From Podarcis cretensis (Eukaryota), in NCBI GenBank assembly GCA_951804945.1, contig OX638159.1:43276001-43340000 (forward strand): DNA of 64,000 nt, written 5' to 3'. This document shows positions 1 to 39,788 of the stretch, piece by piece (positions within the stretch are counted from its first letter, which is position 1; the number at the start of each line of letters is the position of its first letter). A program made the position numbers and the translations under genes. The notes beneath the pieces were generated by a model. That model was not told the origin of the DNA. It did no database searches and saw only the letters and a list, made by a program, of their open reading frames with translations.

Positions 1-255
1 TAGAATTGCAACCCTAAATATACATTCCTACAAGTAAGCATCTCATAATATATTGGAACCTATTTCCGTGTAAACATGTGGATTGCACTGCAGTTTATTG
101 TACACTTCTTTCAATATCTCATAGACACACATGTGACTTTGATTAAATACAAATTTATTTATCTGTCAAACAGTAGATAGGTAGATGGTTAAGTTCTTTA
201 ATCAGTTGATAGCTTTCTTAAGGAAGACAGAATGGGTAAATAAAAACACTCTTAC

Positions 256-528
256 CACACAAGCATCTTTTCCCCCCTTGTCATCTCCTGCACACAACAT
301 GTTACTTGTCACATACATCGAATGCTTATAGTGATTCTCATCATTGCAGACACTTCTCTGAATAACAGTGACATTAACTTCACGAAGCATAGTAGATATA
401 TTCCTGCTTTTGTTATCAGTAATTCCCCACCCAGCTACTAGACACTGTGTTCCTGCCTCAACATCATTGGAAGTGCTAGGAAGCTCAATGCATTTGACAT
501 GTCGGTCAATCTTCGCACTTTTCTCCAT
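256..528 (-). CDS. Granzyme A/K-like serine protease, exon 4 (S1 Asp189); exon 5 with GDSGGP is outside the window
   Basis: Translates MEKSAKIDRHVKCIELP...CLVAGWG...LREVNVTV...NMLCAGDDKGGKDACV. 273 nt, phase 0->0, TTTAAG acceptor, GTAAGA donor. D189 in KDAC indicates tryptase specificity (granzyme A/K group). Confidence 0.95.
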
Positions 529-1385
529 CTTAAAGGAATCATAAAAGGAAATAGTACTTATAAACAGAGCACAATTGAATAATCTCATTTTAGACTTCCT
601 TTTATTTTATAGTACATTGTAAGACCTATAACATATTTGTAATATAATGTACAACATTTGTTTCTCCTAATGATTCAGTGACAAACAGCGTTACTACAGA
701 TGATCAAAGAATCAGGAATTAGCAGTTCCAAGATCAGAAATCCCTACCTGCTTAACTACACACCTGCACCTGCACAATATTACTATTATACCATATGATA
801 ATGAGTTATCTAAATGATTCAGCCTTCAGCTACTTAAAAAAAAAATCTGCAGGAGAAACCAGTCATCAGTCTCTAATGAGATGTCAGTGGCGCCCATTGG
901 GCTTGGTAGAGCTGAGGGCTGGGAGACCAACAGTAGGTGGAGCCAATGACAAGCAGAGCCAACTAATTCTATTTTTGGATCCATCCTTATTGCTGACTTC
1001 TACAAGGGCAATATTGAGACTAAGGAGGAAGCTCTGCTTTATGCTTCTTGTAGAAGTTGCTTAAGCTCAGGCTTTGGCAAGTCTCCCAGGAAAACTCATA
1101 TAACTAAGCAGGCTGAATAAGAACAGCCAGATGACGATCACTAATTTTGCCAAAGAATAACACTAACACTTTCCTATGCTTTCTAGTTGAATAACCAACT
1201 AAGGCTGTATTATGTTTCCCATTGAACTCTGTGGGGCTTACCCCTGAGTAGACATGTGCATTGATTACACTGTTGCCTATTTAAAATTTAAGGCATCCAA
1301 TTCACTTGACAAGAAAGATATTTAGAAAGATAAGTATAAAATTAATTTTTTGCCCCCAGAATATTCACATTCCATTTAAAAGTAC

Positions 1386-1539
1386 CTTCAAAAGCATAAT
1401 ATCATTTTCCAACGTCTTTTCATTATATTGTGGGTGACCATATCTTCCAATAATTTTAATGCGTTGTTGTTTTTTTCCAGTTAGTGAATGAGCACCAAGA
1501 AAAACTATTGCTTGTGGAATTGATTTTTTTCTTTCTTTT
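1386..1539 (-). CDS. Granzyme A/K-like serine protease, exon 3 (Asp102)
   Basis: Translates (P)KERKKSIPQAIVFLGAHSL...ENDIMLLK, with LGAHS and DIMLL motifs. TTTTCAG acceptor, GT donor, phase 2->0. Confidence 0.93.
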
Positions 1540-1689
1540 CTGAAAAGATAAAAAAAAAATAAAGATTTGGTCAACATTTGCTTCTAGCAAGTGCATTAAT
1601 ATTTGTTTTGCACTCTCCTTTGCCTTTCACAATATTCTTGAGTCTGTGTTGTCATACAGTACATTTCACACTCTGCATACTGCATACTT

Positions 1690-1775
1690 AGGCTGCAGTC
1701 TGAAACATACTTACTTAGGAGTAAGTCCCACTAGACACAATGGCCCTTCTGAATAAACGTGTAAGATTTTGCTGT
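1690..1775. repeat. Short quasi-palindromic interspersed repeat (ACTTAC...GAGTAAGTCCCATTG family); related copies near 4-90, 1203-1272, 4240-4325, 7080-7140, 17310-17385, 41830-41900
   Basis: Recurring motif CATACTTAC..GGAGTAAGTCCCA..AATGG..TCTGAGTAGAC..GGATTGCA at several places in the window. Confidence 0.55.
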
Positions 1776-2075
1776 TTTTTTAATCCATTTTGAACTTAAT
1801 CGTCTATATAAATAGTACAGGATATAATACCCCATTGTTTACTGTGTGGTTGAGAAGCCAAAGTCTACTGGGCATTGCACAGAAAGGTATGAATGGAAAG
1901 CCAGTGTCTGTTTCCTGATACGGAAGACGTCGTAATATCTGAAAGACTGCCTCTTTCCCAACAGATGCCCTTGGCTGTTAAGATCAGCAGAGATTCCTCT
2001 TAGTAGTGCTGCTGCCCATGGAAGTTCAGCGGATGGCAGCCCAAAAGATGGTATTCTTTGTAGGAGACCCTAAGC

Positions 2076-2582
2076 CAGAGGTTTTCAACCTTTTTGAGTA
2101 CATGGCTCCCTTGACCAACTACATTCTTTCTTCGGCATCCCTGTGGGGCTCAGGAGCCCAGTTATGTCACCCTTGCCTGCAGAGCTGGCAGCCTCTCATC
2201 TTTTTCCAAACACACTCCCTTGTGGAGTGTTTCCTCAGCCTCCTCCTCCCCTCTCCTTGGGAGTCCTCTGGGCAGCCACAGTTGCCGCCCCTGGTCTCTT
2301 AGCTGCTGCCCCCTGCCCCAAAGGTAGCTGCCTCCTGACACTGCCCCATAGGGGCCTGGGAAGCGCTCCCTGGCCAGCCCCACAGGCATCATTCACTGGG
2401 GGAGCTTGTAGCCAGGGCTGCTGCAATGATCAGCTGTGCAAGCCTTTGGGAGGCAGGGATGCAAGAGGGCATCAGAGGAGGAAGGGAAGGAAAGAGGGAC
2501 AGAAGCCAGTGTTGCCCACAGCACCCATGGCCATCATTCAAGGCACCCCAGGATGCCACAGCACACTGGTTGAAAACCACTG
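2076..2582. mobile_element. Non-autonomous hAT (Charlie-type) DNA transposon in granzyme intron 2
   Basis: TIRs CAGAGGTTTTCAACC / GGTTGAAAACCACTG. Perfect 8-bp TSD CCCTAAGC at 2068-2075 and 2583-2590. Confidence 0.9.
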
Positions 2583-3385
2583 CCCTAAGCTGTGGAATTC
2601 CCCCTCAAACAGAGGTGCATCTGACTCCTTCATTGAATAGCTTTGGCCTTTGAATTGACCCAAAAAGATTTTTCATCTGGGGCCCTCTTGGAATATCCTG
2701 GGGCCCCCGTTTGGAAACATTGCTCTACACCTATCAAGTTAAGACTTCTAGAAGTTAAAAACAGCTACATTCACTCTATATTTTTATACAGTAGTTCATT
2801 AAATCTTCTCCACTGTTTTAACACTATGAACTTGGGTCCATAAAAGGTTCTGTTCCCCCATCCTTGAAATCAAGCTTGAGGAACTCTGGAAAAGTTATTT
2901 GCAGGAGTTTGCTGGCTGATAAAACATCTTCACCACTTCTCTTGTAAAATAGCTGCCACAGCTTTGTACCAGTAAATTACCTACAGGTTTCAGTATATTG
3001 ACTAGCACAGTAACCAAGCTGGGTGTGTGTGTCACATTTCTACTGGAATCATCTTCATCTTCCATCATAATGAAGTGTTGACTTGCACATGTGATGTGAG
3101 CCATTACAGATTAAACATCACAGATAAAGCGTACACATTGAGCTATGAGTGATCACGTTAATCTTTCAAGCACTGGAAAATCAAATTTATGTGCATGCCT
3201 TTGTGAAACAGCCACAAATACTAAGTAGTCAAGTGACATGCAATTGTGTGTCCTTTGTAAAAGTGTTAACTTCATAATAATCTGCACTGCTTTGAACTTG
3301 GGACCACAAAATGAAATGTTACCCAGATTTTCAACCCGCACTGCAATATCACATTGCACTTAAGTCACGAATCCATGATTTACTG

Positions 3386-3531
3386 CAGAGTGGCTAACGA
3401 CCTGTGGCTTTTTGGATGTTGCTGGATTACAACTCCCATCATTACTGACTATACTGGCCATGCTGGCTGAGGCTGATGAAAGTTGGAGACCTGCAATATC
3501 TAGTCCTGAATACCACAAGTTGCCCAACCCT
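3386..3531. mobile_element. Diverged palindromic hAT MITE (ACTACAACTCCCATCA-core family)
   Basis: Shares the GGATTACAACTCCCATCA...GGCTGATG core with the copies at 19894, 29339 and 32073. Ends in CAACCCTG. Confidence 0.6.
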
Positions 3532-3718
3532 GATCTACTGGATTTTTTTGCCATTCTCATTTTCTTGGATCTTACAGCAGGCAGCTACTACTAGCAGCTC
3601 ACACTAGGAGGCAAAGGCTGTGACCTGACAGAATAACAACTAAAGGGCTTGCCTAAAGGGCCATGCAAAACTATACCAGGAAGAACTTTGAAGAATAGAC
3701 ATACTTCTCTATACTTAC

Positions 3719-3872
3719 GGAAAACAATGAGCTGCTGTTAACACCCAGTTCCTTTTAATCAAAGTACCTCCGCATAAGGATGTGTTACCTTCAACACGTA
3801 TAATGAGGGCAGCCATATAAGGTCTTGAGTGTGGAACTGATTCTTTGCCCCCAATTATATCTGTAGATTGAC
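3719..3872 (-). CDS. Granzyme A/K-like serine protease, exon 2 (propeptide, IIGG N-terminus, His57)
   Basis: Translates (G)[22 protein letters not shown]...[18 protein letters not shown], with the PHSRPYMA granzyme signature and TAAHC motif. CTTAG acceptor, GTAAGT donor, phase 1->2. Confidence 0.95.
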
Positions 3873-5674
3873 CTAAGTAGAAATAAGACACACTAATCAA
3901 ATTGTGTTATATATGCTGTGCTTCAGATTAAAGGTTAATGTAATTGTGTTAAAGCACATGCTGATAGGCACATCAATGGAATTTTATGTTGATTCAATGG
4001 CATGCTGGATATTAGGACATCAGTTAATGCTCCTGAAGCCTAATTCAAACACTTTTGGCATAGTCGCTGCTCAAAACTGCAATGGTGTGATTGCATGGGC
4101 ATGCAAACATTTAAATGCTGTTCCCACAAAAGTTGATGACAGATAGCCTGCAACGTTTATGAGCCTGCATCACATCCATGCAGCGGCCCAGAAGTAATCA
4201 CTCCTGTGGGATTGGGAGACCCACAATTGTAGTCAACCAACTGTTACTCAGAGTAGACCCATTGGGATTAAGTGACTGAAGTTAATTGCCATTAATTTCA
4301 ATGGATCTTCTCTTGAGTAAAAACCCCAGCATGGAAAAGGGTTTTATTTTTCATCCCAACAACATGGGACTTTGGCCATATGATTGAAAATAGAACATTG
4401 ACATAGAACTGATAATTCTTTTCTGTGGTGTTATACTTTCCAGATGCTATAAACAAAATGTTGGGTGGGCCCAAGTCCCATTAAAATAACAAAGATTTAG
4501 TAAATAGTAAGTACCTAAATAGCAATAGTTTACAAGGAATTTATATATGCTTAAACCTTTTTCAGTCTGCTTGTTTTCTCGTTCTCTTTTTGTCTAGCTT
4601 TACAGATGCAGCAGAATGAAGTGGGGAAAAGTGGATAATCTGTAACATTTCAGATGGAAGAGGTGATCACATTTTTTAAATCCCTCTGACATACTGTACT
4701 TCAAAAGCTCCCTGCAAGTAGAAAGCTAGCATGACAGAGGTAGTGCTAGGCTAAAACCTCTCTGCCCGATGTGCTTATTTTCTTCTTGCAGGGTAGGTTT
4801 TTCAGATAACACCCATCCCCCAGCAATTGGAAGTAGCTCTGTCCCTTCTGTCTTGAATTTATTATAGTCAATTTAATGCAGGTGCCTGGCAAAAAAATTC
4901 CATTTTCCTAGGCTTTAAGAACTGCTAAATTTTAATTTAGATTAATTATGAGTTTGCAGTCTAATTGAATGGACTCTTCCTGTTTTCCTTTGTATCCTTT
5001 ATTTTATTTTTCAAAAGTATTGCACATTTATTATGCTACTTCATTAGCTGCCCTGGAAACATACATTTCTGCTGCAAGTGTGGGATATAAATTATGTAGA
5101 GAAGCAAAATAAAGTTTTGCTTTGGCAGAGCAGTCTTAACTAGTGGCTTCAAGGTACTTCCTGCCAGCCACAGTGTAAGGTGGACAGCTTCTGCAATTTT
5201 TTTTTTATTATTATTATTTTGCTGTACTAGCTCCATGCAGAGGTGCCCAAATCAGCCCTTCTCCAGAAGCTGGATCCATGGCTTGCCTAGCTCTCGCCTA
5301 GCTGCCATGACATCCCTTTTTGGAGCACACTGTTTGCAGTAGAATTGCCTCTGCCGCAACACTTTATGTGGCCATATTTGCCCCTTTCAATGCATGTTCT
5401 GAACTTACTGACATGGCAGCTTATCTGCCTGAATTTGAAATCTTTTAACAGCAGCACAGGTTCTACCTACTTGCCATTATCTGTCAGTGGTAACTCCTTC
5501 AAATAGGGAATGGCTGGACAGCCAGGTTTTGCAAACTTGACAAGAGGGAGGTAAGTCTTGTAGAATGCAGGTATTGAGGGATATCAGAAATCCCATGAAT
5601 CTGAAGCCAGCCCTGTTTTCCTTACACTGAATGTGTTGCTGAGGGAAGACAAAACAGATGTAGAACTAACTTAC

Positions 5675-5735
5675 CAGTCTGAATTTTGAAGAGAAAATAA
5701 GTCGCCGAGAAGGACAAAACCAAGAAAAGCCCCAT
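5675..5735 (-). CDS. Granzyme A/K-like serine protease, coding exon 1 (signal peptide MGLFLVLSFSATYFLFKIQT-G)
   Basis: Minus strand reads CCACC-ATG-G (strong Kozak), 20 mostly hydrophobic codons, then G|GTAAGT donor (phase 1). This joins in frame to exon 2 (G+GT=Gly). TATA box about 45 bp upstream. Confidence 0.85.
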
Positions 5736-5779
5736 GGTGGTGGTAACTGCTTTGAGTCCCCTTCAGAACATGTGCCTGC

Positions 5780-5818
5780 TATATATAGGTTGACTATCTG
5801 AAGGAAGTGAGCTGTGGG
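5780..5818 (-). promoter_or_regulatory. Granzyme core/proximal promoter: TATA box with adjacent GATA, ETS and RUNX-like motifs
   Basis: TATATATA at 5780-5787, 45-52 bp upstream of the ATG. AGATAG at 5794-5799 (minus), AGGAAGTG ETS core at 5802-5809, TGTGGG RUNX-like at 5813-5818. ETS and RUNX sites are typical of cytotoxic-lymphocyte granzyme promoters. Confidence 0.6.
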
Positions 5819-5916
5819 TTTTTTTTTCTTTCTCCTTTCCCCCCTCAAATTATTCTACCTTTTGCCCCTCCCCTAGCCAAGATCAATAATAGCAAAAGTA
5901 TCGTGCACAGTTGTTG

Positions 5917-5919
<3 letters not shown>

Positions 5920-5953
<34 letters not shown>

Positions 5954-5960
5954 TGTGTGT
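5920..5960. repeat. (GT)n microsatellite upstream of the granzyme promoter
   Basis: Visible directly in the sequence. Confidence 0.9.
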
Positions 5961-8900
5961 AGCATTGTTCCCTGGGTTATATGGACAAATAGAGAAATTT
6001 GAGAAGGTTAAGGAAAAGGCAGGCAAAAATATTATAAATTAATGGGAAAAACTGAGTCTGTGTTTCCTCTACTCCAGTAGGGGACATATAGGAATATTTG
6101 CTGACAGTATACATAAACAACTTTTATTACTCATGTTCCAATAAGGTGTTTATATTTCTGTGACCTAAAATAGCATTTATAAATAATGAGATAATATTCA
6201 CATATACAGTTCTGTAAATTTTGTTTGATGTTATATTTGTGTATCCAATTACCTTATATCTGCATTTTGTTTGATTTTTCTATTGTTCATAGCATTATTT
6301 GTAATATATAAACATTTAATAATAACAAAATGGGGGAAATGGGTGGTTTCCAAGTGTAAGGGGGAAAGCAATGGGGATTCTTTCCATGTGGGTGCCACAT
6401 CCATTCTGAGCATCTTGACTAAATCTTACTTATATTGAAAGCAGTACAGGTGCACAGCTAGCAATTGAAATACCATGCCAATTAAGACAAATATGTGACT
6501 TGCTGCTGTGAGTCTCAGCAGCTGTTAATTTTAGAAGTGTCTGTCCTGTGTTGCTTCACATAAACATGGGAGGCGGGGGGAAACAGCAAAGCACCTGGGT
6601 TTTTGCAGTGCCACATACTTCTACTCCTCCACCCCTCTAGACTTGGCTCCCCATTAAAGTCCTGTGAACAAGAGCTGGTTGACATCTGTTGTTGGTGAGA
6701 AGCTCATTGAAAGGTGCTAAGGGCTTTGCAAGTGTGATTTTAACGTTTTGCAACAGATGCCAAAATATCCAAGACCAGCACTGGCACTCTGCTACCGTGA
6801 ACATGTAGATATGCCCACAGATGTCCAGGTAAATGAAACTTAACAGATGCTGGCATTTTAATGATTGCATTAGGTCTTCACGGACTCTGGTTCATAAGTG
6901 GTGTATGTGTGTTTTATAAGATTGTATTTACACATTATTTACAGTTGAGTTTGTCCCTAATGCAACTTTCAAAGCTGTTTCCCTCAAAGAGCACTATCCA
7001 ACGAAAGTTAAGTTAAGTTAAAGTCCAGTTTTCTGTTAATAGGATAGATTTGCAGCATAGTCTGAATCATCTTTGGCCAACACTTAAGTCCTGTTCAGTA
7101 GAATTTACTCTCTAGAAAGTGCATAGGATTACAACCACATTTTTAATTCTTGTTCACTGAAATCAATGTGGAGAGTGCTTAACTGGCTGGATTGTGTCCA
7201 GAGTTACGATTCCTATGGGAGAAGCTGGATTGCTCTGTAAAAGTGAGAAGTTTTATTTGGGCTGTTTGCTTGTGCTGTTTCAGCAGCAGCTTTATGAGCT
7301 CGTTGAGTGGCCAGAATATCTTAAAATTGTTACTTAAAGTAAGAAGCTGTTTTTATATGTCCATATAACACCAACTAAATGTTGGTGTCAGTTTTCATTT
7401 TACTCAAATCATTGGTCTATATTTTTTTTTAAGTCGCTGTGAGCTAATGTGAGCTGTCTTACTGCAATTAACATACAACTTTAAACCTTACTGAAAGAGC
7501 GATTCCCACAACTGCACATAAATATGCACATCTAAATTTAAATTGCCTTTGTCTGGCCTAAGGAAGGGCACTTGGTATTTTTAAACTAAAAAAAAAAAAA
7601 AAGCGTCTAGGGAGCAAAGTAAGGTTATTTTGAAATCAGCCTTCAACAAATGTGTCAGTAAAATATAAATAGATTACATGTTAATAACATTTTCCCAGGG
7701 TTGCAGTTTACCTGATCTAAAGAAAAATAACTGTGTTGCTACCTTCAGATTCAGAACAAGTTGTCTAGCACAAGCTGCATTTAACTCCCTGTTCCCCCAC
7801 GAAAGGTTCCATTAAGCTGGTTTCTCATCCGGTGTATATCTCAATATAATAAAAAATAATTTGTCATTCAAAGTGGCACTATAGTTGCTTTCTTTCTAAC
7901 AGTAAGAGCAGATGGCTGAATCCAACAATGGTTGGATGAACTGTATATTTGCCTCTCTTCAATGGATCTTCCACAATACTGATAGCCTTGACTTTTTTTT
8001 AAAAAAAGTATTTTGGTTTGTTACTTTTTAATAGGGCATGTGCTGTACTTTCAAATTGGAGAAAGGCAATGTTAAAGCAATGTGTGGTAATATTTGTTAA
8101 ATCGTATACTGCCTTATATTTCAGAGAAGCCATTAGTTTTCTCAAAGTCGCTTTCCAGGAGGAGAGGCAGCATATAACATATATTCAGATTAAAGCACCA
8201 AATAGTTAATTTACTAAAATATTTAAATGGCTGAAATCACTAATAAGGGTGCACCACTAAAACAGCCACTTATTTTAGCCATAGCACAATACACCCATTT
8301 GGACTGGTGGTGCATGATGGCTGTGCTTTTTCTTTCTTTCCCCCTTTTTTCTCTGTACCCATGGCAGGGAAGGGTCATGTGTGAAATGGCCATAAGCAAA
8401 TGCAGGTATAAACATATATTTTTAGCATAAGGTGCCCATCTGTTCATAATGTGTCTTTTAAGTTATTACAGGAGGTAGAGCAACAAAAGTTTAACCAGGG
8501 GAAAACTTTTCTATTTGTAGGTGAGGTTAGAGTGCTAACATCAAAACTGGAAGGAAGCTAAAATAACTCTGGCGTACGTGCTACATACACTTTAAAATAT
8601 TTTTAGGATTTAATATGGGATTTGTATTGCCAATTGTATACGTTTTCATAGTGGAAAATGATATGCCCCAGTTCTTTTGTAGAAAGGTCAGGTATATTAA
8701 GATGAGCATTCCTTGCTGATCCAACTTCTCAGCATAGTAACTATAACACTGAAGAAAGGCGGAGCAGCAGCACTAGACTTGACCTTGTGTACTTGTTTTT
8801 ACCATGAATAGTCAGCTGGCAAACAAAAGAGCTCTGTGTGAGGGGGCACTAGTTGAAATTTACCCTACTTTTTTCTTATTTATCTTGTTGCACGTGCTTC

Positions 8901-10059
8901 CTAAGAAACAAACAAAAAAATCACTGGGTGACATTTAAATGTGTCAGCCCATTTGCACAATGGAATTCGGCCTGTGCCAATGACATTTCCCCTTCCTTTC
9001 CTTTCCCCTGCTGCCCCCTCCCCCCAAAAAACCCTTCATTAAAATATGTCAGTTCCTTCACATAAGGACACAGGAATCTACCTTATACTGAGTCAGGCAG
9101 TTGGTTCATCTAGTTCAGTTTTGTCTACACTAGGGGTAGCCAACATGGTGAATTATGGACTCTCCTACTTCACAGCTAACTCTTCAGTAACAAATGTTTG
9201 CTGACAGTTTCACAGGGATTCTAGCATTTTGGAAGGCTTTTATGCCACATACCTCAAAACTATCCTCTTAGATGCATGTACTTAACTTTTTGCAGGATGA
9301 AACACTGAGATTCCAAAGGATTATATTACAACAAATTTAATAACTTACCCATGCAGACTTGAGGTTACAGTGAGTAACTTGATTACGGTAAATCAAGTGG
9401 TAATGTCAGTTGCTGTATCTTACAGTGTCCTGTTCTGGGTGTCATGGATGGTTAAAGTGGTATAGATTATCTCTTGGTTCTCAGAAGTGAAATGGTAGGT
9501 TAATAACTGTCACAATTGTCAGGCACGCATATATGCTACCAAATTTGGTAGGATATTGGGTGCTGCCACTATACTGATGACACCCTGCTCTATTTCTTGT
9601 CATCTTAATCGGGTGAGGTCATGCACATTCTGGTCCAGTGTCTGGTCATTGCAATGAGTTGGACGTGGGTGTCTAAATTCAAAACTGAATCCTGATAATA
9701 CAGATGCTGTGTTATCCTGGGTCCAGGAATTAAGTGTTCTTGACAGGGTTGCATTATGCCTGAAATAACATGCATATCCTGGGGGCTAGATTCCACCTTT
9801 TGACTGAAACCCTTGTGTCATAAATGGCAAGGCATGCTTATCCCCAACTATGGTTGCTGTTGGACTGAGATAGTCTGGGCACAGTAACCCATTCTCAAAT
9901 AACTTTTTATTTAAATCCATTCCAATCCATCTTCAGGCCTGGCCGTGGGACTGAGAGTGAGACAGGGTGTGTGTTGCCTAGCTGCTGCTGCTTCAGCTTC
10001 TTGATCTCTCTGCAGATTTCAGTACCATGGTATCCTTCTGGAAATTGGGCACACTATGC

Positions 10060-10460
10060 TACAGTTGTCCTACCTAACCCACAGGCCCTTAACAGCTGGG
10101 GACCAATTTACTTGCAGGATCACCTTATTGACTGCTTTGATCTGCGGACCTGGCACTGTTTCAGGGGCCACATGTGCCACATAAAATGACTTCTGCAGTT
10201 GTAAGAAATTGATCTTATAGTGTGGGAGCAGCACCATTTTGAAACTTCCTTAGCTATTGACACTAGGCAGACACCTTTTTTCAGCACCTGCTTAAAACAT
10301 TTTTGATCAGGCAAGCCTCTCCAGACATATACATGTTGACGTGTTGTAATTTTTTACTGTGAATTTTATTTTATTTTAATTTAATCTTTTAAATCTTTTA
10401 AATTACTTGTTTTAAAATGATAATTTAATATCTCTTGCAAACTACTTGGAGGTTTTATTA
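10060..10460 (+). mobile_element. L2-type LINE 3' fragment
   Basis: GGGACCAATTTACTTGCAGGATCACC...CACCTGCTTAAAACATTTTTGATCAGGCAAGCC then a T-rich tail, resembling squamate L2 3' ends. Family assigned from recall, not a search. Confidence 0.55.
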
Positions 10461-10463
10461 CAG

Positions 10464-10466
<3 letters not shown>

Positions 10467-10500
<34 letters not shown>
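10467..10500. repeat. (GT)n microsatellite
   Basis: Visible directly in the sequence. Confidence 0.9.
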
Positions 10501-10502
<2 letters not shown>

Positions 10503-10774
10503 TTGAAATAAAATGCTGTATATTATAGAATAATATGTATCATTAACATTTACAGGAGGAATGTAAATAGGAGAGGAATATAAAGGAAGAGGAGAGAGGA
10601 GAGGATTAACGAAAATTGAGCGGTAGGTTAGAGGTTTATTGGAAAAGAGGAAGAGCATGATGAATAGGGTGAGGAAGAACATTTCAAGTGGTGTGGAAGG
10701 AGAGCTGGGGCAGTGGGAAATGAAGAAATCCTGGGGTTTGACAAGTAGGAAAAAAATAGCAGGAATGGAATGCA

Positions 10775-10817
<43 letters not shown>
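10775..10817. repeat. (CT)n(GT)n compound microsatellite
   Basis: Visible directly in the sequence. Confidence 0.9.
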
Positions 10818-10823
<6 letters not shown>

Positions 10824-11545
10824 CTTCTCCTGAGTCTTATATACTTGAATAACTCAAAATGTAATTCTGGAGGTTTTCAGAAAAAGAAGCTGGGGTATGG
10901 CTAGGGCCCTATCAAACTAGGCAGCCAGGGAGTCCTTTGGAGCCAGGGAACTGAGCTGTGCTGGGAAGCCTGGGTGGGGGCCAGCATTCAGCAGGCAGCT
11001 GGAGTCAGCCAGGAGTTTCATTGCTCAGCCATGTTCTCTCTGGCTCTGCTCCCCGGCCTGATTGCCAATCTCTGCAATGACCTTTGCTCGTGTGCTGCTT
11101 ACACGCCAGTGTGTGCTAATGCTGCAGTTTGGTTTCCAGCTTGGAACCACTTGTGCTGCTTGCACGAAATGCCTCTGCTACTTCATTGTTTAAGAGAGAT
11201 GATCTTGTCCAGCCTCCTTGAACTGCACAAGAGATTAACTCTCCTTTTGGTTTAAATCCAAGTCTCTTCTAGGGGAAAATGTGTTTGATTATCCATCTCT
11301 TCATCGAGTTAGGAAAATGTCCTTTTCCATTAAGTCTCTTGCCTCATTTTGGCTAGTTTGACTATTCATAGGTCTCGCCTAATCCCCTCCCCCCTCCAAA
11401 TCATTCAAAGCTGTCTTTCTTGCTTTTAATTCCAACTAATGTTACTTTTAGTAATTACTTATGGGTTAAAACTCCATTTACAAAGAACAGTTTGAGATTA
11501 TTTAAATTAAAGCTGAACTCTAACAATTTGCAAACTGACTGATTA

Positions 11546-11597
11546 TAGATAGATAGATAGATAGATCCGTGTGTGTGTGTGTGTATGTGTGTGTGTG
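11546..11597. repeat. (ATAG)n plus (GT)n compound microsatellite
   Basis: Visible directly in the sequence. Confidence 0.85.
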
Positions 11598-12413
11598 TTG
11601 CTTCTACCTATGTGTATTATTGCTGCTGCTGCTGTCCCACCTTTTAAATCTAAATTTCAGCTTAAATTCATTTGGATGTTTTTATTTATTTAGGGTGATT
11701 AATGTTAAACTGACTGTTCCAGTTTTAAACATGGACAAAATGTACATATTCAAAATAAAATTAACATGTAGTTGCATATATGGAAAAAGTGCTCCAAAGG
11801 GAGGCTTTGCTACTTCAGACAAGTTACAATTAAAGCATTCCCCCCCCCCTTTTTGTTTTGTTTTCTAGAATGCATTTTTGAAGTTGGCTGTAGAGTAATG
11901 ATACATTTCCTTATACACTTCCCCTAATTTAATTGTCGTCACCCAGATATTTATTTTTCCAGCTTTGTTCAACAATGTATCTACCTCACTTGAGGTCTTA
12001 TTTATTTATTTAATAATATATCAAATTTAAAAATAACCTACTTTTCTAAACATGTTATATATAACTCAATATAGTTCCCAATTTAAAAACTTGATAAAAG
12101 GAAACACAGTGCAACTTTAAAAGATTATTATTTTCAACTAACAGAAGAGTAAATTTCTCTCCTCTAATAGTATTCCAGCTGGGTATGTGAATATATAGCA
12201 CTCTTCATAGTGGCAATACATCCTGTGCAACATATTTAAAAACAACAACATATTTTCAAAAGATGAAAGAGTTAAAAAGGACACAGATTTCTAAGATGCA
12301 TAAAGATTTGTTAACTTATTTAATTTTATTATTTTTTTTCTTTCCTTTTATATTGTTCAATAGAACCATTTAAGACTTAGAAAGACTGAAATTGTTTTGA
12401 ATATCATGTAAAG

Positions 12414-12551
12414 CAAACCTTGTGCGGTAGGTTAAGTTAAGAATCAATGACTGGCCCAAGGTCACCCAGTGAGCTTCATAACTGGGTGGGGACTGGAACC
12501 CTGGTCCCCCAGTTCTTAGTCCAGCACTTGAACCACTCCACTGCACTGGCT
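12414..12551 (-). mobile_element. tRNA-derived SINE (Squam3-like), 5' portion
   Basis: TGACTGGCCCAAGGTCACCCAG...GAACCC...AACCACT..ACTGGCT, homologous to the full copy at 42785-43079. Confidence 0.65.
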
Positions 12552-14662
12552 GTCTTGGATTACTTTATTTAAAGCAAACTGCTACTTTGAGTTCTCCACA
12601 TTGTCTGTGACTTTAGTAGTGGTCTTGAATGAGAGTGATATCCATGCTGACATTTTCTCAGAAATTGTAAGAGAAATCTTGGCTCCTACCAGCAGGAATT
12701 GCTGGACGCCCACTCTCCTATAATATGCCAAAGTTCCACTTGAACTTGTGGAATGGTTTCAACCAGCACCTTGCAGATCTGATTTATGGTTGAATTTTGT
12801 GTATGGGAGTCTTTGAGGTAAGCGATGCATATTCATATATACCATGGGTGGAAATTAGTATTGTTTGTGCAGGATACAATTTCACGGCCTACAATAGAAG
12901 GGAGCTCTGTCTTTCTCATCAGATGAACCCTGCAAAGGTTTTGCTATTGAGGTAATACATCTCTGTATTTTGGAAACTATTTTCAGGCGCAAGCCAGGAT
13001 AGGGATAGAGTTTCTCTTTATACAGAGCACTGAAATAAGATCTTCAGATGTTTTCAAATTTGCTGTCTTTGAGTTGGAGAACAGAAAACATCGCTTCAGT
13101 TTTTAGGTTATATATGTTCAAAAGCAAAACAATCTGAGTAGTGGGAGGCTTGATTAATTGGCTTCTTTGCATTTAGTGCAATTGAGGCAGTACTTGGCAA
13201 TCAAGCATAAAAATGGAATTTACAATCCTGATCCAGCCTGACAGACTCTTAATTGCAGCGTGCATCAAAAAGTTTCTCCAGAGATAGCTCTGCAGAGTTG
13301 TTTAACCAGGTCTTTGGGTCAGTTTTGACTAGGAAGATGAATTGGTGGGTAGCTCATAACATTTTGCAAATATTTCAATTTGATAAAGGGTTTGCCTGTA
13401 ACTTCAGAGGACTTGCTGCATAGGAAATGGTGCCTTCAGAAGCATGAAGGGTGGTTTTCTTCCAGCTCTTCTGGAATCACAAGTGACAGGAATGGAACGC
13501 AAGTTTTTGAAACTGATGTTTTTAATAGAGGAGAACTCATATTGGTTACAGGAAGCAGCCAGTGCTGTATACCTGTTGCTTTGAGGCCCAAGTAAGAAAT
13601 TTTGAATGATCACCAGTAACATTCCCATTGAGGGTGGCAATATTGTCAAAGTCAATTCTGAATAATAGAATCATAGAATTGTGGAGTTGGAAAGGACGCT
13701 GAGGATCATCCAGTCTAAATGTTTTTTCCCCCTGCCCAATTTCAGTTGCTGGATTGCATTTCCTAAAACTGAAAAGACATTGCAATGGTCATTAGTGCGA
13801 TATGGAATGTTGTGATGCCCTATATATCGTAGATGGCTTTTAAGAAATAATAGGCCATTTGCCAGTGTCTGCTGAAGGCAGGAGTGCTGGGATAGATAGA
13901 TTGTGGGCTGATCCATCAGATATGGTCATTACTCAGAGCAAGCTGTTGTTTAATGCTGGCTCTTTAAAACAGAAACAGAAAAATGCTCACTTAAGTCAGC
14001 TTTCTGAAATAATGCTTTTTTTGGGGGGGGGAATCCATACTTTGTGTCTTCCGTTAGCTTGGATTGTGGTTATAGTTCTGGGGTTAGAACTACAGGCTTG
14101 CTCTAATATTCATGTAGTAGATTTCTTATGAGCAAAAGCACTCTTTAATCTATCATGTACATGCTCAGAGGTGCTCTTTGTAGCAGAAATGTCATTTTAA
14201 AATAGATTCCACATGAGCTGTGGTTCAAATGTAAACCTTGGGAAGAGTACAAACTTCTCATATTTAGTAGTCCCATTGTTGATAAGCCACAGTACTTCCG
14301 TTTTATTTTAGCAGCTAATGGTAGTTGTGCCAAAATAAGTGCATGATGTACACTGAATTATAAACCCATTGGGTTCTTAAAAATACCAATTAATCTTACT
14401 TTTACTGGGAAAATGTGAAAATAGCTTTCTGCTTAGCAGGTTAGCACATTACTGAGAAAATTAGCATTTGCAGTCCAGCAGACCCCTGGCAACCAGCTGA
14501 ACACAGCTTCTGGATGTGGTTGACAGAGGAATCTTAAGGGGAATCCCACTGATGGGCATTTGTAGGAGCTCCATACTGCTGAAGCAAAATGTTCTGAAAT
14601 GCTGTGACCAAATACTTAAACTGTGCTTAAACAGTCCATGTTGCATATAAACAGTCCCGTTA

Positions 14663-15689
14663 CCGTATTTTTCGCACCATAGGACGCACTTTCCCCCTCC
14701 TAAATAGTCAGGGAAAATGTGTGTGCATCCTATGGAGCGAATGCAGGGGGGAGGCAGGCGGGAAAAGCCCCCAAGAGCCGCACACAAGCTTCGTGTGCTT
14801 TTGCGGGCTTTTCCCCAGGAGGGAGAAGGGACTGACTGGCCGCATCAGTCCCTTCTCCCTCCTCGGGGAAAAACCCCCAAGAGCGGCACCCCCTTTAAAG
14901 GCTGTGCGGCTCCTGCGGGCTTTTCTACGAGGTGGGGAAATCTTCCCACCTCCCAGAAAAGCCAGGAGAAGCTGCACAGCCCCTTTAAAGAGCGTGCGGC
15001 TTCTGCGGGAGGTGGGGGAAGCTGCAGCAGATTCCCTCCTCCCGGGCTCCCTTTGAAGCGGCAATGTGGGAGGGGAGCAGCTCCTCTCCCACTTTCCTGC
15101 TTCAAAGCAACTACGGAGGAGGGAAGGAAGGGGACCATGGATCCTCCGCTGCTGACGGCTGCAGTGGATTCCCTCCTCCGTGATTGCTTTGAAGCAGGAA
15201 AGTGGGAGGGGAGCAGCTTACACTTGTGTAAGCAGCTACTCTCCCACTTTCCTGCTTCAAAGTGGAGGGAATCCACTGCAGTTGCGAGCAGAGGATCCAT
15301 GGCTCCACTTCCTTCCCTTGAAGCAGGGTGCGGGGGTGCAGGGGGGAAAGACGGCAGGAAATAGATGCCGGGCAGGAAGACACAACCACACTTTGACCAC
15401 TGAAAGTCCACCCCAGCCTCCCCAGATTTCCACTGAGACGGCCAGGCTAATCTTGATGGCCATAAGTCTGGCTCAGCATTATTAACTGGACTTAGATAAG
15501 CCATGGTTCCCCTTCCTACCCTCCTCTGAGGCTTGATTTAAAGCAGCAAAGTGGACAGGAGCCGCCCACTTTGCTGCTTTAAATAGTTTAGTGCAACATT
15601 TTATCCAGAATATTTTTTTCCGTATTTTCCTCCTCTAAAAACTAGGTGCGCCCTATGGTCAGGTGTGCCCTATAGAGCGAAAAATACGG
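14663..15689. mobile_element. Non-autonomous Tc1/mariner-superfamily (Tc2/pogo-type) DNA transposon, about 1 kb
   Basis: About 27-bp TIRs CCGTATTTTTCGCACCATAGGACGCAC / GTGTGCCCTATAGAGCGAAAAATACGG, flanked by TA TSDs (14661-62, 15690-91). GC-rich interior with no recognisable transposase. Confidence 0.9.
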
Positions 15690-17489
15690 TAATGTAATCT
15701 GTAAGTTTTGTAAGAATTCTGTCTTCTGGATCCAGTTACCTATATTCTTCCTTTTCTCATTGAGGGTGAGGTGGGGAACTCTGTTAGAAAGCTATTTATG
15801 GAAAGAAAACAAACTCCGTTGGCCATGTTTGCATAGGACATTAAACCAGACTTTCTGCTTTGTTATGATTTATTGAGAACAAGGAGCATGCAAGTACAAT
15901 TGTTCCCACTTCACTCCTCCCTTAACGTGAGGAGCTGAAACAAACCAGGATGCATGGGCTTCATGTTACCTCCTAACCAGGGATTGTATTTTGTTGTTCC
16001 CTAACAAGCTACGATCAGCAACACAAGAACAAACCATTGCTCCACGTTGGCTAGCAATCTTGACTTGCTAGGGAGAAACAAACCATGATCCTGGTTCAGA
16101 TGTAACTTCCTGGGATTTTTGATTGTTTGCTTGTTTTGCTCAAGGGAAGATCATTGCTTGATGTCAGTAATCTATGATAAGCCAGAAAGGCTGACTTCTC
16201 ATTTATGTTTGATACGACCATTGTGTTCTAACCTTTGCTTCATTGTAGTCTCTGTGTCCTTGGGAAAGTCATTTCTGCATTAAGACACAGAGGAGGATGG
16301 GAAGTCTATTTTCCACCCCAGAAAAGAATTGGCAATGTTTTCTCTTGTATCATGTATTGCTCTGATAAAAGTCACTACATCTGGAGATAGTGGGTGATTA
16401 GCTTGTTTTCTCTTAATGGATCTTAGAATACAGGTATAGAGAAACACACTCTTTTTTTGTACACAAACAGCAATTGCAAATCTTGAACTCGCTGTGATAC
16501 TCTGGTTATTTACAAATGTAAGTCAATACACAGAACATGAATTGAGAGTGGTTGCTATAGCTCTTCTCAGGAATCTGCACTTGTACTTTGAGCATAAGAT
16601 GGCCTTTCCTAATGATTTAAGAAGAGAATATGCTGTGCAGTTTGTTCTTTTTAAGAATGCATAACTATTTAAATCATGTTGTGACTCTGAAAACCTGAAG
16701 AATAAGAAACGCACATCTTTCATGTTTGGCTTCCAGTAAGTTGCAGAGTAAGTTGCAGAGATAGTCTGTCCAGTAAGTTGCAGAGATAGTCTGTCTCAAC
16801 ATAAGGACAACAATAATCCCAGGAGGCATAGTAAGCAGTGAACGAAACAATAGTTGTGTTGGTTAAGTTTCAGGAAGGATTACAGTTTGGCCTGTATGTT
16901 ATGGCAGCTGATGCCCACTGGATCTGGTGGGGCCACTAAGAGATCACAGGGTTGTGGCCAAGTTCTGGTTCTCCCCCCCCCCCCAACACCCTCCCTTGCA
17001 AAGATGCTATAGTAGACATTTAAGCAGAGCTATTTTACAAACAGTCAACACCTTACTAAACTGGAAATAAATGTTTTATTTTGGTTCAGAAGGGGTCCCT
17101 GCTGCCACAATTGCGTCTCTGCTGGGATTAAAAAAAACCAAGGTTCTTTTTCGCCTGTTCTGGTTGTTTTCCTATCCTACTCCTTTGCAAAGAAATAGTG
17201 GACACTTAAACATTGCAATTCTGTGACTACTTAGCACTAAGGGTCTGTCTTCAGAAGGAGTCCTCGCTTTCACAATTTGTAGTGTGTATTCATGCCACAA
17301 TAACTGTACATTACTCAGAGGGTAAGGCCCTCTGAATTCCATGGGGATTCAGTCCCCCCTGGTAAGTATATACAGGATTGCAGCCCTAATGAGTTAATCT
17401 TAAAGGTACCACACGGGACTGGTAATAAGGGACTCCAGGCTATGGAATAAAATCCAGGAATATTAAGTGGACTAGGAACTGGTACTAGC

Positions 17490-17935
17490 AGTGAGGGTTA
17501 TCAATTGAAGTTGGAACATTCAGGATAAAAGGAAGTACTTATTCACACAGTAAATGGACTTTGCTATTATAAGGATGTAGAAATGGTTGACAATTTAGAT
17601 TGCTTTAAAAGTGGATTAGACAAGATCATGATGAGATGGCCATCATTAGCTGCTAATCATCAGTATCAGAGGCAGCATGCTTCTGAATACCAGTTTCTGG
17701 GGATCATGAGTTGGAGATTACTGGATAGCTCAGTTGGTTAGAGTGTGGTGCTGATAACTCCCAAGGTTGCAGGTTCGATCCCCATAGGGGACAGCTGCAT
17801 ACTGCTGCAGGAAGTTGGACTAGGGTCCCTTCCAATTCTATGATTCTATTAAAAACTGTTTTTCACATGCCCTACCTATGGACTGCTCATATACATCAGT
17901 TTGGCTACCGTGACATGGAATGTTCATTTGTGGCA
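17490..17935 (+). mobile_element. CR1 LINE 3' fragment interrupted by a SINE
   Basis: CAGGATAAAAGGAAGTACTTATTCACACAG...TTTAAAAGTGGATTAGACAAG...CAGAGGCAGCATGCTTCTGAATACCAG, a typical CR1 3' region. Similarity resumes after the SINE. Confidence 0.65.
17721..17850 (+). mobile_element. tRNA-derived SINE with CR1-type (ATTCTATG) tail
   Basis: Pol III A box TAGCTCAGTTGG and B box GGTTCGATCCC, then GTTGGACTAG..GGTCCCTTCCAATTCTATGATTCTAT tail. Confidence 0.8.
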
Positions 17936-19893
17936 AACGTAGATTTCTTGCAGCATAATGTGCCAGGTGGTCACTTGCTCACTTGCCCCATCTCACTATT
18001 CTGGAAACAGCTTGGAAGATCCACCAAAAATGTTTCCAGTGTTGTTCCATCTGTTCCAGCCCTCTCACTTTCATGCCCTTTCTCCCTGCCCTGGATTCAA
18101 CCTCTGCTCTCTTCTAATTGTGTGAAATGTGAGTTTGTTGTAACAGGCTTACTACATAACATAATTATGTTATGCTTAACATAATTGGGTCACATTATTA
18201 CTATGTGGAACGTAAAGCTGTCAAACTCAGGTTATTTAAACAGAAAGCACGTGACATTTATGAAATGTCTGCAGAGCTTCTTTAGGGGATACAGAGCTTT
18301 ACAGTAAAAACGGACATACCCCAGAACTACAAAATCCAGTGTGCAGACTATGTCAAGGTATTAAAATCCTAACTTCCCACTGTCTTGATGGTGCTTTTCA
18401 GATGGATCCCATTAGATGCTTTTCAACATGTATATGTGCATGGGAAGAATCCATGCTAGATTATTTCCTGCTTCGTGGCCCCACAAATAGGTTTTGGTGC
18501 AAGTCATCCTTGTGTTAGAGGCTCTTTCACAGCCCTAAATAGCTTATTCTAAAAAGAAGTGTCAACATTAGACTTAATGAGCCAGAGTGAGAAGTCAAAA
18601 TAAAATATGCACTCTTGGTTTGTATTATCTGACTTGTTGAAATAAACCCTTCCAAGAGAAAAATATGTGAAGCCAGTTGTCATGAAACAATAATATACAT
18701 CCTGACAGCTCTGGAGGCCTGATGTATGGCTGCTACTGGGATGATTTAAGTCTTTTAAGAATGTGATGAAGGAGAGGGGAGAGAGACAATAAAGTAAGGG
18801 CTAGATGTTTCCACCAGTGGGGTACTTTCACTTTGGGGAATGCTTATTTATCCAGTGGTGGGGTTGGGGACTGGTGGGTGGGAAAGGTGGCAGGGTGGAG
18901 ACCAAGGGAGTTTACGCTCATCAGCACTGGAGTGGAGTCTGGAACGAACGTTCAGGCTCTTGGCTGGCAGGGGAGACGGAATGTTCCGAGTCAGAGCTGC
19001 TTTTGGAAGAAGGGGGTTAGCTGCCTGCAAAGGAATGTTTAGCAGGCCTTTCTATTGTCTGTTTCTCCATCCCTCTGCCTCTCTCTGTTTAATGTATTAA
19101 AACTGGGGCAGGAGGAGGGAAAAGAGAAAACAAATGTGTGTGCAGCTGACAGGTTAATAAGTGACAGATACTATTTCCAGCTGGGATCTGGATGGAGTAG
19201 TAGGTAACTTTTGCTGAAGCTGCACCGAGGGATATCGTTTTGGTCATAGTAGTCTGTGTGCCGGGACGAGCGTGATGTGTTTGTGATATGAATAAACTGA
19301 AGCACAAACACGGGAGCCCCTATAATGTAGTCAACACATGGATATTTATAAAGCAGAATGCTGTTTCTCAGTCGTGGCAAACTTGTATCCAAGAGCAGAA
19401 AACTAATCATGATAGTCCCCAATTTTAGGGTTAGCTCTGTCGTGAATTTTCCTAGGCAAGTTGTTTGCCCTCTGCCAATCCCACCCCACCCCTCCACCAG
19501 TATTGCAAGGATAGTAAGACCAAGCCTTACCACTGAGGTGGGGAACCTCCAGACCACAGGTCCAGTTTGGCCAGCCAGGGGTCGCAATTTCTCCCATCAG
19601 GCTACTCCTAGGAAACCACACCCACCTGCTCCACACCTTAGGTCATATGTGGCATCATGTGTAGCGCAGGTACTAACATGGCTTCAAAGGAAAAATTGGA
19701 AGCTTTAAATTGATATTTTCATGTTACAGGAACCATACTTTGGAGCTCCCAGGTGGGCACATTCACTGAACTGTTTTCTGTGCCTGCTAAAAACATTTCC
19801 ACCCAGCCTTTCTGAAAGCCTACTCAGATGTGTAAAATATTTCCATGTGTTTTTAATCTGCCATTAATTTTAATTATTTCTTCAATGCTTTAT

Positions 19894-20020
19894 CAGTGTT
19901 TCTCAAACTTGGGTTCCCAGGTGTTGTTGGACTACAACTCCTATCATCCCTAGCTAGCAGCACCTAGTGGCCAGGGATGATGAGTCCCAAAACACCTGGG
20001 GACCCAAGTTTGAGAAATGA
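19894..20020. mobile_element. Palindromic hAT MITE inserted in an L2-like 3' fragment (about 19725-20120)
   Basis: Arms CAGTGTTTCTCAAACTTGGGTTCCCAGGTG / CACCTGGGGACCCAAGTTTGAGAAA. Core GGACTACAACTCCTATCATCCCT. Confidence 0.75.
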
Positions 20021-20570
20021 CCTCTTTAAATAGTTGTTTTTACTGATAACCTGATTGTGTCATTCTTTTTGGAAATTGACTTGAGGTGTTTTGTTTTAAA
20101 CAGTCAAACAGTATATACATTTTAGGGGGGGAAAGTAAGAGTGAGTTTCCGACTATTCCTTTGCTGGAGAGTGGCATACTCCCACTGCTCACCAGTTTAT
20201 CCTAATGGGCATTGAGAGCATGTCTTGCTCTAGGATCAGGAAAGGGCTTGCATTGAAACCCCTTTTAAAATGGTTCCTCAGTTGATGCAACAGGCAGAGA
20301 AATCATTAAACCATCATCCATTACCCTCAACAATTTTCAAGTGGGCTGTTGGGGGCGGGGGGGGGGGAGTTTGGGAATCACTGGTGCAGATATACTGAGC
20401 TTGATGTACTAGTGCCCTAACTCAGTATAAAGGAGCTTCCTGTGTGAGCTTTGCTGAAGCTTTATTTTGCAAATCAAAGGTGAACTTTGTTATACAATTG
20501 CAGTGTGTCAAAATCTTAATGATGTATGTATAAATTGTAATAAGTATGTGGGCATTCTCTTGTTTTTCAG

Positions 20571-20628
20571 ACTGTCGTTTTACTCTGGACATTCTTCGTT
20601 TTCCATGTATTGCTTGCTCTTCCTAGCA
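20571..20628 (+). CDS. PLPP1: Phospholipid phosphatase 1, exon 4 (C2 motif SGH)
   Basis: 58-nt exon (R)LSFYSGHSSFSMYCLLFLA. TTTTTCAG acceptor, GTAAGT donor. Confidence 0.95.
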
Positions 20629-37678: not shown

Positions 37679-37855
37679 CTTTATCTTCAGGCCAGAATGA
37701 AAGGCGATTGGGCAAGACTTGTGCGTCCTACGGCTCAGTTTGGTCTTATTGCAGCATCCATCTACGTGGGCCTCTCCCGTATTTCTGATTACAAACATCA
37801 TTGGAGTGATGTGTTGACCGGACTTATCCAGGGAGCACTGGTAGCTATACTTATT
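37679..37855 (+). CDS. PLPP1: Phospholipid phosphatase 1, exon 5 (C3 motif SRxxxxxHxxxD)
   Basis: 177 nt, [65 protein letters not shown] acceptor, GTAAGT donor. Confidence 0.97.
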
Positions 37856-39169: not shown

Positions 39170-39301
39170 GTTGTGTATGTATCTGATTTCTTCAAAGACA
39201 GAGGTCGTACGTTTAAACAGAAGGAGGAAGAAGATTCACACACAACCTTACACGAGACACCTACCAGTGGAAATCACTATGGCAGTAATCACCAGCCATG
39301 A
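39170..39301 (+). CDS. PLPP1: Phospholipid phosphatase 1, last coding exon
   Basis: [43 protein letters not shown]-stop, the PLPP1-type C-terminus. ATCCAG acceptor. Confidence 0.96.
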
Positions 39302-39529
39302 TAAAGTCAACAGCTATTACCCTGTGGAATCTCCCCTTCTATAAAAAGAAAACGTCAAGCATTTCTGACCTATGTAAAGAAATAAATTAAATGCCTCTTG
39401 AAGGGACTGCTGCTGCTATACTTCTTGGATGCTCACTTTACATGTATATAGTAACACTTAGGTATCTAAACTTTAAATCTCTATTGGTTCAAGCTTTTGC
39501 TTTAAACACACAGTATTCTGGCTGTTTTT

Positions 39530-39539
39530 TTTAATTAAA
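39530..39539. terminator. Palindromic TTTAATTAAA giving an ATTAAA poly(A) signal on both strands between PLPP1 and MTREX
   Basis: ATTAAA on + at 39534-39539 and on - at 39530-39535. A + strand AATAAA is also present at 39381-39386. Confidence 0.45.
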
Positions 39540-39735
39540 AATAATGTGGTAACACTTATGTACAAACAGCAATGGTATGTAATATGCTTGCTAGCATGAG
39601 GCTTATGGTGAAATACATACAAGAATGTTAAGCATCTCTCCTGCTTGGGAAGGATTGGCAGATTCTGTCGCTAACTTTACACTTCTGCCTCTGAAGAATA
39701 ATTGGTGATGTTCAAACTCCGTGCCAGGACAATAC

Positions 39736-39788
39736 TTATAGGTAAAGACTTGCAGCAAATACAATATCTCTCTTGATTTTGGTAATGC
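39736..39788 (-). CDS. MTREX: Mtr4 exosome RNA helicase, last coding exon (27)
   Basis: (G)ITKIKRDIVFAASLYL-TAA, the conserved Ski2-family C-terminus. TTAACAG acceptor. Confidence 0.97.

Follow-up and report, generated by a model that had tools for sequence, protein, structure and literature searches.

Introduction

Granzyme A (GZMA) is a protease of T and NK cells. Cathepsin C removes its propeptide and the mature enzyme cleaves after Arg or Lys. PMC4646688 pictures the granzyme A/K locus as having hardly changed between sharks and humans, and PMC10366535 gives a DGG rule for the tryptase pocket. According to Assis 2021 (PMC8467205) and PMC13343718, 4.3–8.7% of vertebrate genes belong to nested structures. 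Most nested genes are young duplicates, 74–78% are located on the opposite strand, and antisense nested duplicates are common (PMC8467205).

The window analyzed here comprises 64,000 nucleotides of the Podarcis cretensis genome. Coordinates refer to this window and values x ≤ 0 correspond to contig position 43276000+x (G000:C11). An intact granzyme A-family gene, G1, lies antisense in intron 3 of PLPP1. Most likely (probability of roughly 0.7 for the reading as a whole), G1 is an old squamate tandem duplicate that, prior to the divergence of Podarcis and Zootoca, moved by ~180 kb as DNA and took introns and promoter along. The predicted product is a trypsin-like protease that killer lymphocytes secrete from their granules. 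Like the vertebrate nested intronic genes described in PMC8467205 and PMC13343718, G1 is a duplicate lying wholly in an intron on the opposite strand, and it is likely a tissue-restricted gene in a broadly expressed host. Unlike these, it is an intron-containing immune protease gene, apparently moved locally from its own cluster. The nesting of a granzyme in PLPP1 is an ordinary, common architecture and reveals no new mechanism.

The granzyme gene is nested in intron 3 of PLPP1

PLPP1 is modeled on the plus strand with six coding exons (282 aa), and all five introns are GT-AG. Exons 1 (-47198..-47141), 2 (-23761..-23607) and 3 (-3744..-3464; G000:C11:43272256-43272536) are located left of the window, where the earlier note had expected them. 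The K-x6-RP motif is encoded in exon 3, which shares 97% identity with PLPP1 of Zootoca and Lacerta. Exon 4 (20571..20628, with SFYSGH), exon 5 (37691..37855, with SRISDYKHH) and the coding part of exon 6 including the stop codon (39170..39301) follow in the window. A tblastn search of the window with the full PLPP1 model returned only exons 4–6; the six other matches have E-values of 3.5–8.8. Intron 3 extends from -3463 to 20570 (24,034 bp; positions 1..20570 in the window), and this single intron contains the whole G1 coding sequence (5735..-569).

The joint between exons 3 and 4 is present in RNA-type contigs from two of three such runs of a related organism (X19 and X20, from two studies). 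In these contigs the last letter of exon 3 is -3464, and the letters that follow it are identical to window positions 20571-20600 (30 of the 30 listed). Full-length PLPP1 proteins are found in RefSeq for Podarcis and Zootoca. The gene models and the RNA joint confirm the antisense nesting that the earlier note had proposed.

A misassembly that merely places the granzyme inside PLPP1 has a negligible probability. No single short-read contig reaches from PLPP1 exon 3 as far as exon 5 of the granzyme, and the breaks occur at repeats; in organism G there is a gap at a repeat between PLPP1 exon 3 and G1. However, DNA contigs of three of the four other organisms (B, D and F) form overlapping tiles from PLPP1 exon 3 to G1 exons 5 and 4, and where X5 is broken a contig of X14 continues across the break, and vice versa. 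Furthermore, neither the window nor the 20 stretches to its left contain an N, and accessions of the granzyme and PLPP1 are adjacent in two other annotated genomes.

Gene model and predicted protein of G1

G1 is located on the minus strand and consists of five exons with an open frame of 268 aa free of stops. The promoter (5780..5809) contains the TATA-like TATATATA at 5787 with an ETS-type CACTTCCT just upstream; the ACTTCCTTC core is common to G1 and the paralog G2. Exon 1 (5735..5675) begins with the ATG at 5735, encodes a signal peptide as judged by eye and ends in phase 1. Together with the start of the intron it is 75% identical to G2 over 87 nt. Exon 2 (3872..3719) encodes the short propeptide, the IIGG start of the mature chain and the catalytic His (AAHC), and exon 3 (1539..1386) encodes the catalytic Asp (NDIML) and the motif HPQY. 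Exon 4 (528..256) matches Pfam Trypsin with an E-value of 2.4e-17 and includes an extra Cys in VKCIELP and the S1 Asp in KDAC. Intron 4 (660 bp, of which 1..255 are in the window) leads to exon 5 (-405..-569; G000:C11:43275431-43275595), left of the window, with GDSGGP and the stop codon. ATTAAA, a poly(A)-like signal, is found ~40 nt downstream of the stop. The interval from 5787 to 256 given in the earlier note stops at the end of exon 4; the gene runs ~0.6 kb beyond the window edge.

All four introns are GT-AG with phases 1, 2, 0 and 0, the same phases as in the paralogs G2 and G3. G1 thus does not show the intron loss expected of a retrocopy. The retained introns and promoter point to a move of G1 at the DNA level.

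In the alignment the catalytic triad (His-Asp-Ser) and the tryptase pocket D189/G216/G226 (residue numbers presumed) are intact. G1 shares the five exons, their phases, the IIGG start, the triad and a DGG-type pocket with granzyme A (1op8, 1orf and 9k1t; T-cell tryptase locus), which is also its best PDB match. In contrast to dimeric granzyme A, G1 lacks the unpaired Cys93 (HPQY instead of HPCY in G3), and possibly it is therefore monomeric. The odd Cys in VKCIELP, also found in Zootoca, is another difference from granzyme A. Exons 2 and 3 are longer than those of G3 by 6 and 4 codons, respectively. The tryptase pocket and the missing Cys-93 are also features of granzyme K (1mza), but G1 is not its ortholog by tree or PDB score.

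In three putative RNA runs (X18–X20, tissues unstated) only short, unspliced pieces of low depth cover G1, and none of the 15 listed of 133 joints in these runs is a G1 splice joint. Exon 1 and the signal peptide are absent from the RefSeq models of the gene, which may reflect thin support by RNA. These models and the long stem branch of G1 in the trees would fit a duplicate that has retained an open frame but is decaying or hardly expressed. This is improbable in view of the open frame, the canonical splice sites, the triad, the promoter and the poly(A)-like signal. Moreover, G1 is 91% identical to the Zootoca protein over 144 columns, with an unchanged region around the catalytic Ser. In four other organisms none of the 12 listed of 14 indels falls in G1 exons 4 and 5, and both G1 exonic differences among the 40 listed of 154 rows are synonymous.

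Paralogs and gene order

Two further granzymes, G2 and G3, occupy the usual locus between GPX8 and ESM1, ~180 kb from G1. The gene order is PLPP1[G1]-MTREX-DHX29-CCNO-GPX8-G2-G3-ESM1. Apart from G1, order and strands match those in human. The usual granzyme pair shares chromosomal neighborhood and strand with G1, but G1 is a third copy outside the canonical ESM1-CDC20B/GPX8 slot, which is taken by G2 and G3. The earlier note raised the possibility that G1 belongs to a cluster; it is the only granzyme in the intron.

A search for a granzyme K-lineage gene at the locus found none. The next-best match to exon 4 in the genome (C8:68.38 Mb) was considered as a displaced granzyme K and rejected, because its best score is to trypsin and its scores for granzymes A and K are similar. 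The picture of a nearly unchanged locus is corrected for this lizard, which has three granzyme A-lineage genes, one of them in PLPP1, and no granzyme K found.

Phylogenetic position of G1

The main tree has 46 rows, namely the 95-row set minus 50 rows (near-duplicate snake, bird, turtle and lizard rows and fused-domain rows) plus one Tiliqua isoform. A 44-row tree was built from these 46 rows minus 13, plus 11 added representatives. The full 95-row set was used for a quick tree only.

G1, G2 and G3 all belong to a granzyme A clade made up of squamate sequences only, which is separate from granzyme K. G1 thereby lies within the granzyme A clade of amniotes. Support for the squamate clade and for the Cys-less clade within it is 100/98 and 98/97, respectively, in the 46-row tree, and 100/98 and 99/95 in the tree with granzyme K added. 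In the latter, G1 remains within squamate granzyme A, several starred branches away from K. The granzyme K representative P0383 (3e-124 to PDB entry 1mza versus 1e-70 to granzyme A) is outside the clade holding G1, and the P. muralis ortholog of G1 matches granzyme A (3e-63) better than K (4e-54). Of the assignment as A/K-like in the earlier note, the A part is upheld and the K part is not. Early-squamate gene conversion between A and K could blur this assignment.

The earlier note left open whether G1 is an ancestral copy lost in mammals or a lineage-specific duplicate. A granzyme A/K copy inherited from the amniote or tetrapod ancestor, or else a granzyme K that was displaced, would account for the missing dimer Cys, a feature of granzyme K (PMC4646688), and for the lack of a K-lineage gene at the locus. 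It is very improbable, since AU tests reject both a copy lost in mammals (p = 0.008) and an origin before squamates (p = 0.002) and G1 stays within squamate granzyme A even with K in the tree. The squamate-only clade and the AU tests support lineage-specific duplication. A recent lacertid copy of the neighboring paralog (G1+G2) is rejected as well (p = 0.003). In the tree, G2 and a Phrynosoma domain are grouped together (99/87), and the G1-G2 split is older than the parting of lacertids and iguanians. The stem of G1 is long (0.53–0.57) and has no resolved sister, so that branch-length artifacts may affect its placement and the AU tests. Squamate sampling is biased, as the sequences were collected by similarity to G1.

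Origin and predicted function

According to the tree, squamate granzyme A first duplicated into a Cys-93 lineage (G3) and a Cys-less lineage. The latter duplicated again, giving rise to G2 and G1, with the exact sister of G1 not settled. G1 or a copy of it then may have reached the large intron of PLPP1 through duplicative transposition at the DNA level, as the kept introns suggest; no breakpoints survive. A search of intron 3 for breakpoints, flanking repeats and RT remnants gave nothing diagnostic, and neither transposon ends nor a target-site duplication were found around G1. A 131-bp match between window positions 10181-10307 and the region upstream of G3 was rejected as a carried enhancer because it is a dispersed repeat (40 of the 40 scored matched; 453 candidates).

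PLPP1 splices over G1, as seen in the related organism, and G1 would be tolerated in the intron because its signals for splicing and polyadenylation point to the opposite strand. By analogy to granzyme A, G1 is likely expressed from its own promoter in T and NK cells. The short propeptide would be removed by cathepsin C, and the enzyme would cut after Arg or Lys. The nesting event is datable and its parent paralogs are 180 kb away, so that it lends itself to tests of how expression diverges once a gene is nested.

A more speculative and rather unlikely extension is that granzyme K was lost in squamates, whose granzyme A duplicates then gave rise to a new tryptase of the monomer type. Lacertid G2 would have lost the IIGG start and the open pocket. 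G1 would have kept activity, gained the unpaired Cys and longer specificity loops, and would now, with its regulation changed, take the place of granzyme K in the lizard.

Annotation and occurrence in other squamates

Whether the gene is annotated in other sauropsids was a question of the earlier note. It is already known in RefSeq as a shortened 'granzyme A-like' gene, with the orthologs XP_028604941 (Podarcis muralis, 97% identity to G1) and XP_034956474 (Zootoca vivipara). A literature search, in which most records were judged by listing alone, did not turn up any description of a granzyme within PLPP1/PPAP2A.

The accessions of the orthologs directly follow those of PLPP1 (XP_028604939/40, then ..941 in P. 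muralis; XP_034956473, then ..474 in Zootoca), and the position in Zootoca is derived solely from this adjacency. A granzyme is numbered after PLPP1 in both lacertids versus none of five non-lacertids (Hemicordylus, Euleptes, Thamnophis elegans, Pseudonaja and Rhineura), for part of each species' granzymes in RefSeq; accession numbers are a loosely positional proxy of synteny, as the Hemicordylus granzymes are in separate number blocks.

These data bear on a nesting that is squamate-wide and old, with entry into intron 3 near the squamate base; some of the extra Cys-less granzymes that geckos, skinks or cordylids possess would then be nested orthologs of G1. Such an early entry would agree with the age of the G1-G2 split, with the at least two Cys-less paralogs in Hemicordylus, Tiliqua and geckos, and with the non-coding DNA, in which nothing alignable is left between G1 and G2/G3 beyond exon flanks and dispersed repeats. 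It is unlikely, however, as no non-lacertid sequence groups with G1, the accession proxy separates lacertids from the other squamates, and in Phrynocephalus the locus tags are ten apart (JRQ81_012915 versus _012925), which corresponds to the usual position. An old tandem duplicate that moved before the Podarcis/Zootoca split remains the preferred reading.

The RefSeq models, which for P. muralis have lengths of 230 and 154 aa and for Zootoca a length of 145 aa, lack the IIGG start in addition to exon 1 and the signal peptide. The 268-aa precursor is not among the RefSeq records returned, and the G1 model presented here completes the shortened annotation.

Structure of G1 and its host gene

PLPP1 extends on the plus strand from window position -47198 to 39301 (the window being G000:C11:43276001-43340000, with coordinates of zero or below to its left) and encodes 282 amino acids in six exons. 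Between the end of exon 3 at -3464 and the start of exon 4 at 20571 lies the 24,034-bp intron 3, which holds the whole of G1, a granzyme gene on the opposite strand. No copy of PLPP1 exons 1-3 is present within the 64-kb window. The earlier note, made from the sequence alone, had correctly spotted the antisense nesting and placed these three exons to the left. The spliced RNA that it proposed to look for, joining exon 3 to 20571, is found as well: in contigs from two of three RNA-type runs (two studies, related organism) the match breaks off at the exon 3 donor and resumes with the 30 letters that open exon 4. The PLPP1 transcript is therefore spliced over G1. DNA contigs of three of four other organisms provide overlapping tiles from PLPP1 exon 3 through G1 exon 4; the full stretch is spanned by no single contig, and the breaks in X5 and X14 (DNA contig sets from different organisms) are bridged by each other. 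Run X2 was left out of the count, as it showed no differences in its long pieces and may be the source of the assembly.

G1 is read on the minus strand, with a TATA-like element at 5787, the start codon at 5735, four exons inside the window and exon 5 (-405..-569) left of it. Spliced by coordinates, it encodes 268 amino acids; the introns are GT-AG with phases 1, 2, 0, 0. A signal peptide and a short propeptide are followed by IIGG, AAHC, NDIML and KDAC-GDSGGP. The gene is intact in this genome and the protein is conserved in two genera, the closest sequences being those of P. muralis (97%) and Zootoca (91%), with all next matches at or below 58% over the whole protein. Among PDB entries, granzyme A matches it best. 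G1 lacks Cys-93, the unpaired residue of dimer-type granzyme A, so from its sequence the usual dimer is not expected (PMC4646688). The ninth cysteine of G1, in VKCIELP (window 256-528), is shared with Zootoca and P. muralis and is absent from the nine other rows of the alignment; it might serve as a new site for a dimer or a partner.

Further features of PLPP1 were observed. A second, paralogous exon 2 lies at about -11660..-11535 (46.5% identity with the first exon 2 across 43 amino acids), in agreement with the mutually exclusive exon 2 isoforms of PLPP1. PLPP1 and MTREX are arranged tail to tail with ends ~0.5 kb apart (window 39300-39800), and their 3' UTRs may overlap. In intron 3, a GC-rich patch (window 14600-15700) with short direct and inverted repeats and several open frames of 110-230 codons probably consists of stacked repeats.

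Gene neighbourhood and paralogues

The order over 454 kb is PLPP1(+) with G1(-) inside, MTREX(-), DHX29(+), CCNO(+), GPX8(-), G2(-), G3(-) and ESM1(+). The neighbours carry presumptive names, assigned by motif. Pfam matched seven of ten pieces of these genes, backing the DHX29, cyclin, glutathione peroxidase and IGFBP-type domains, and returned no family for either of the two pieces from MTREX or for one from GPX8. The human order is the same except for G1.

G2 (window 185470-176600; G000:C11:43452600-43461470) and G3 (window 196187-189613) are both on the minus strand and intact, with five exons and the intron phases of G1. G1 shares 54% identity with G3 and 46% with G2. Granzyme A or K queries match only G1, G2 and G3 in the region, which makes G1 a lone third copy. 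In G2 the frame is open and the triad is present, but its mature start is IVEW, not IIGG, and its 216-type pocket position is Val; the P. muralis G2 has the same start and pocket residue. Relatives in Phrynosoma and Ophiophagus (GDGGGP in the latter) also look altered. Judged by sequence, G2 is possibly a non-activatable or re-specified granzyme.

Origin of G1

In the careful tree of 46 rows, the squamates, 33 rows in all, group together in a single clade (100/98). A subclade of 16 rows (98/97) holds G1 and G2, and the dimer cysteine is missing in all 15 covered rows; among the other 17 squamate rows it is present in 13, missing in three and not matched in one. G3 pairs with Rhineura and G2 with a Phrynosoma domain, and G1 is on a long stem without a supported sister. 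Addition of granzyme K (P0383) and one K-like sequence left this placement the same. The earlier note had offered an ancestral copy lost in mammals or a lineage-specific relocation or duplication. For the 46 rows, a branch of G1 before amniote granzyme A is rejected by AU test (p=0.008), which disposes of an ancient copy lost in mammals, and so are a branch before squamates (p=0.002) and a pairing with G2 as its only sister (p=0.003). With the tree, these rejections place the duplication giving G1 within squamates, in line with the second proposal, and probably earlier than lacertids.

Retroposition is excluded, because G1 has kept its introns, promoter and 3' end, and its exon 1 with the intron start and its 3' flank are alignable to G2. 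No breakpoints of the move were found in PLPP1 intron 3. RefSeq numbers, a weak hint on position since they are loosely positional and cover only part of the paralogues, put the G1 orthologue directly after PLPP1 in both lacertids and no granzyme there in all five other squamates with both numbers seen; in Phrynocephalus, the PLPP1 and granzyme tags are ten apart. On this pattern, the move would fall after the squamate duplication and before the split of Podarcis from Zootoca, a lacertid-only move being the simplest reading.

Proposed working and published context

The own promoter of G1 would drive expression in killer lymphocytes, and the product would be activated by propeptide removal. Cleavage after basic residues is predicted from the DGG pocket (PMC10366535). 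The antisense orientation should keep the processing signals of G1 out of the PLPP1 transcript. Interference between the two genes is hypothetical and possible only in cells transcribing both; in mammalian nested pairs, expression divergence is not in excess, according to PMC8467205. The same paper gives nested genes as 4.3-8.7% of vertebrate genes, mostly duplicates and about three quarters antisense.

According to PMC4646688, the A/K locus is conserved and flanked by the same genes, and anole has two A-like genes. Neither PPAP nor DHX29 appears as a term in the text of that paper, and PLPP1 is absent from that of PMC10366535 (figures aside in both). No report of a granzyme nested in PLPP1 was found in the literature searched, and the orthologue of G1 is already in RefSeq as truncated models. 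The arrangement is apparently undescribed, though of a common class.

Granzyme K and other squamate granzymes

What is left of interest concerns how granzymes evolved in squamates, namely the loss of the IIGG start in G2 and the granzyme K lineage, of which no gene was found at the GPX8-ESM1 locus or among the 140 of 329 genome-wide candidates that were scored. The slot adjoining ESM1 is occupied by a Cys-93 granzyme A. Granzyme K may have been lost in squamates, and the anole gene called 'K-like' in PMC4646688 may be a duplicate of granzyme A.

In Thamnophis and Anolis, public models under the names polyserase-2-like or TMPRSS9-like resemble fusions of tandem granzyme A genes, as do long models from Phrynosoma, Ophiophagus and P. 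muralis (fusion-like proteins P0001, P0005, P0006, P0052 and P0156). Colubrid snakes have species-specific expansions.
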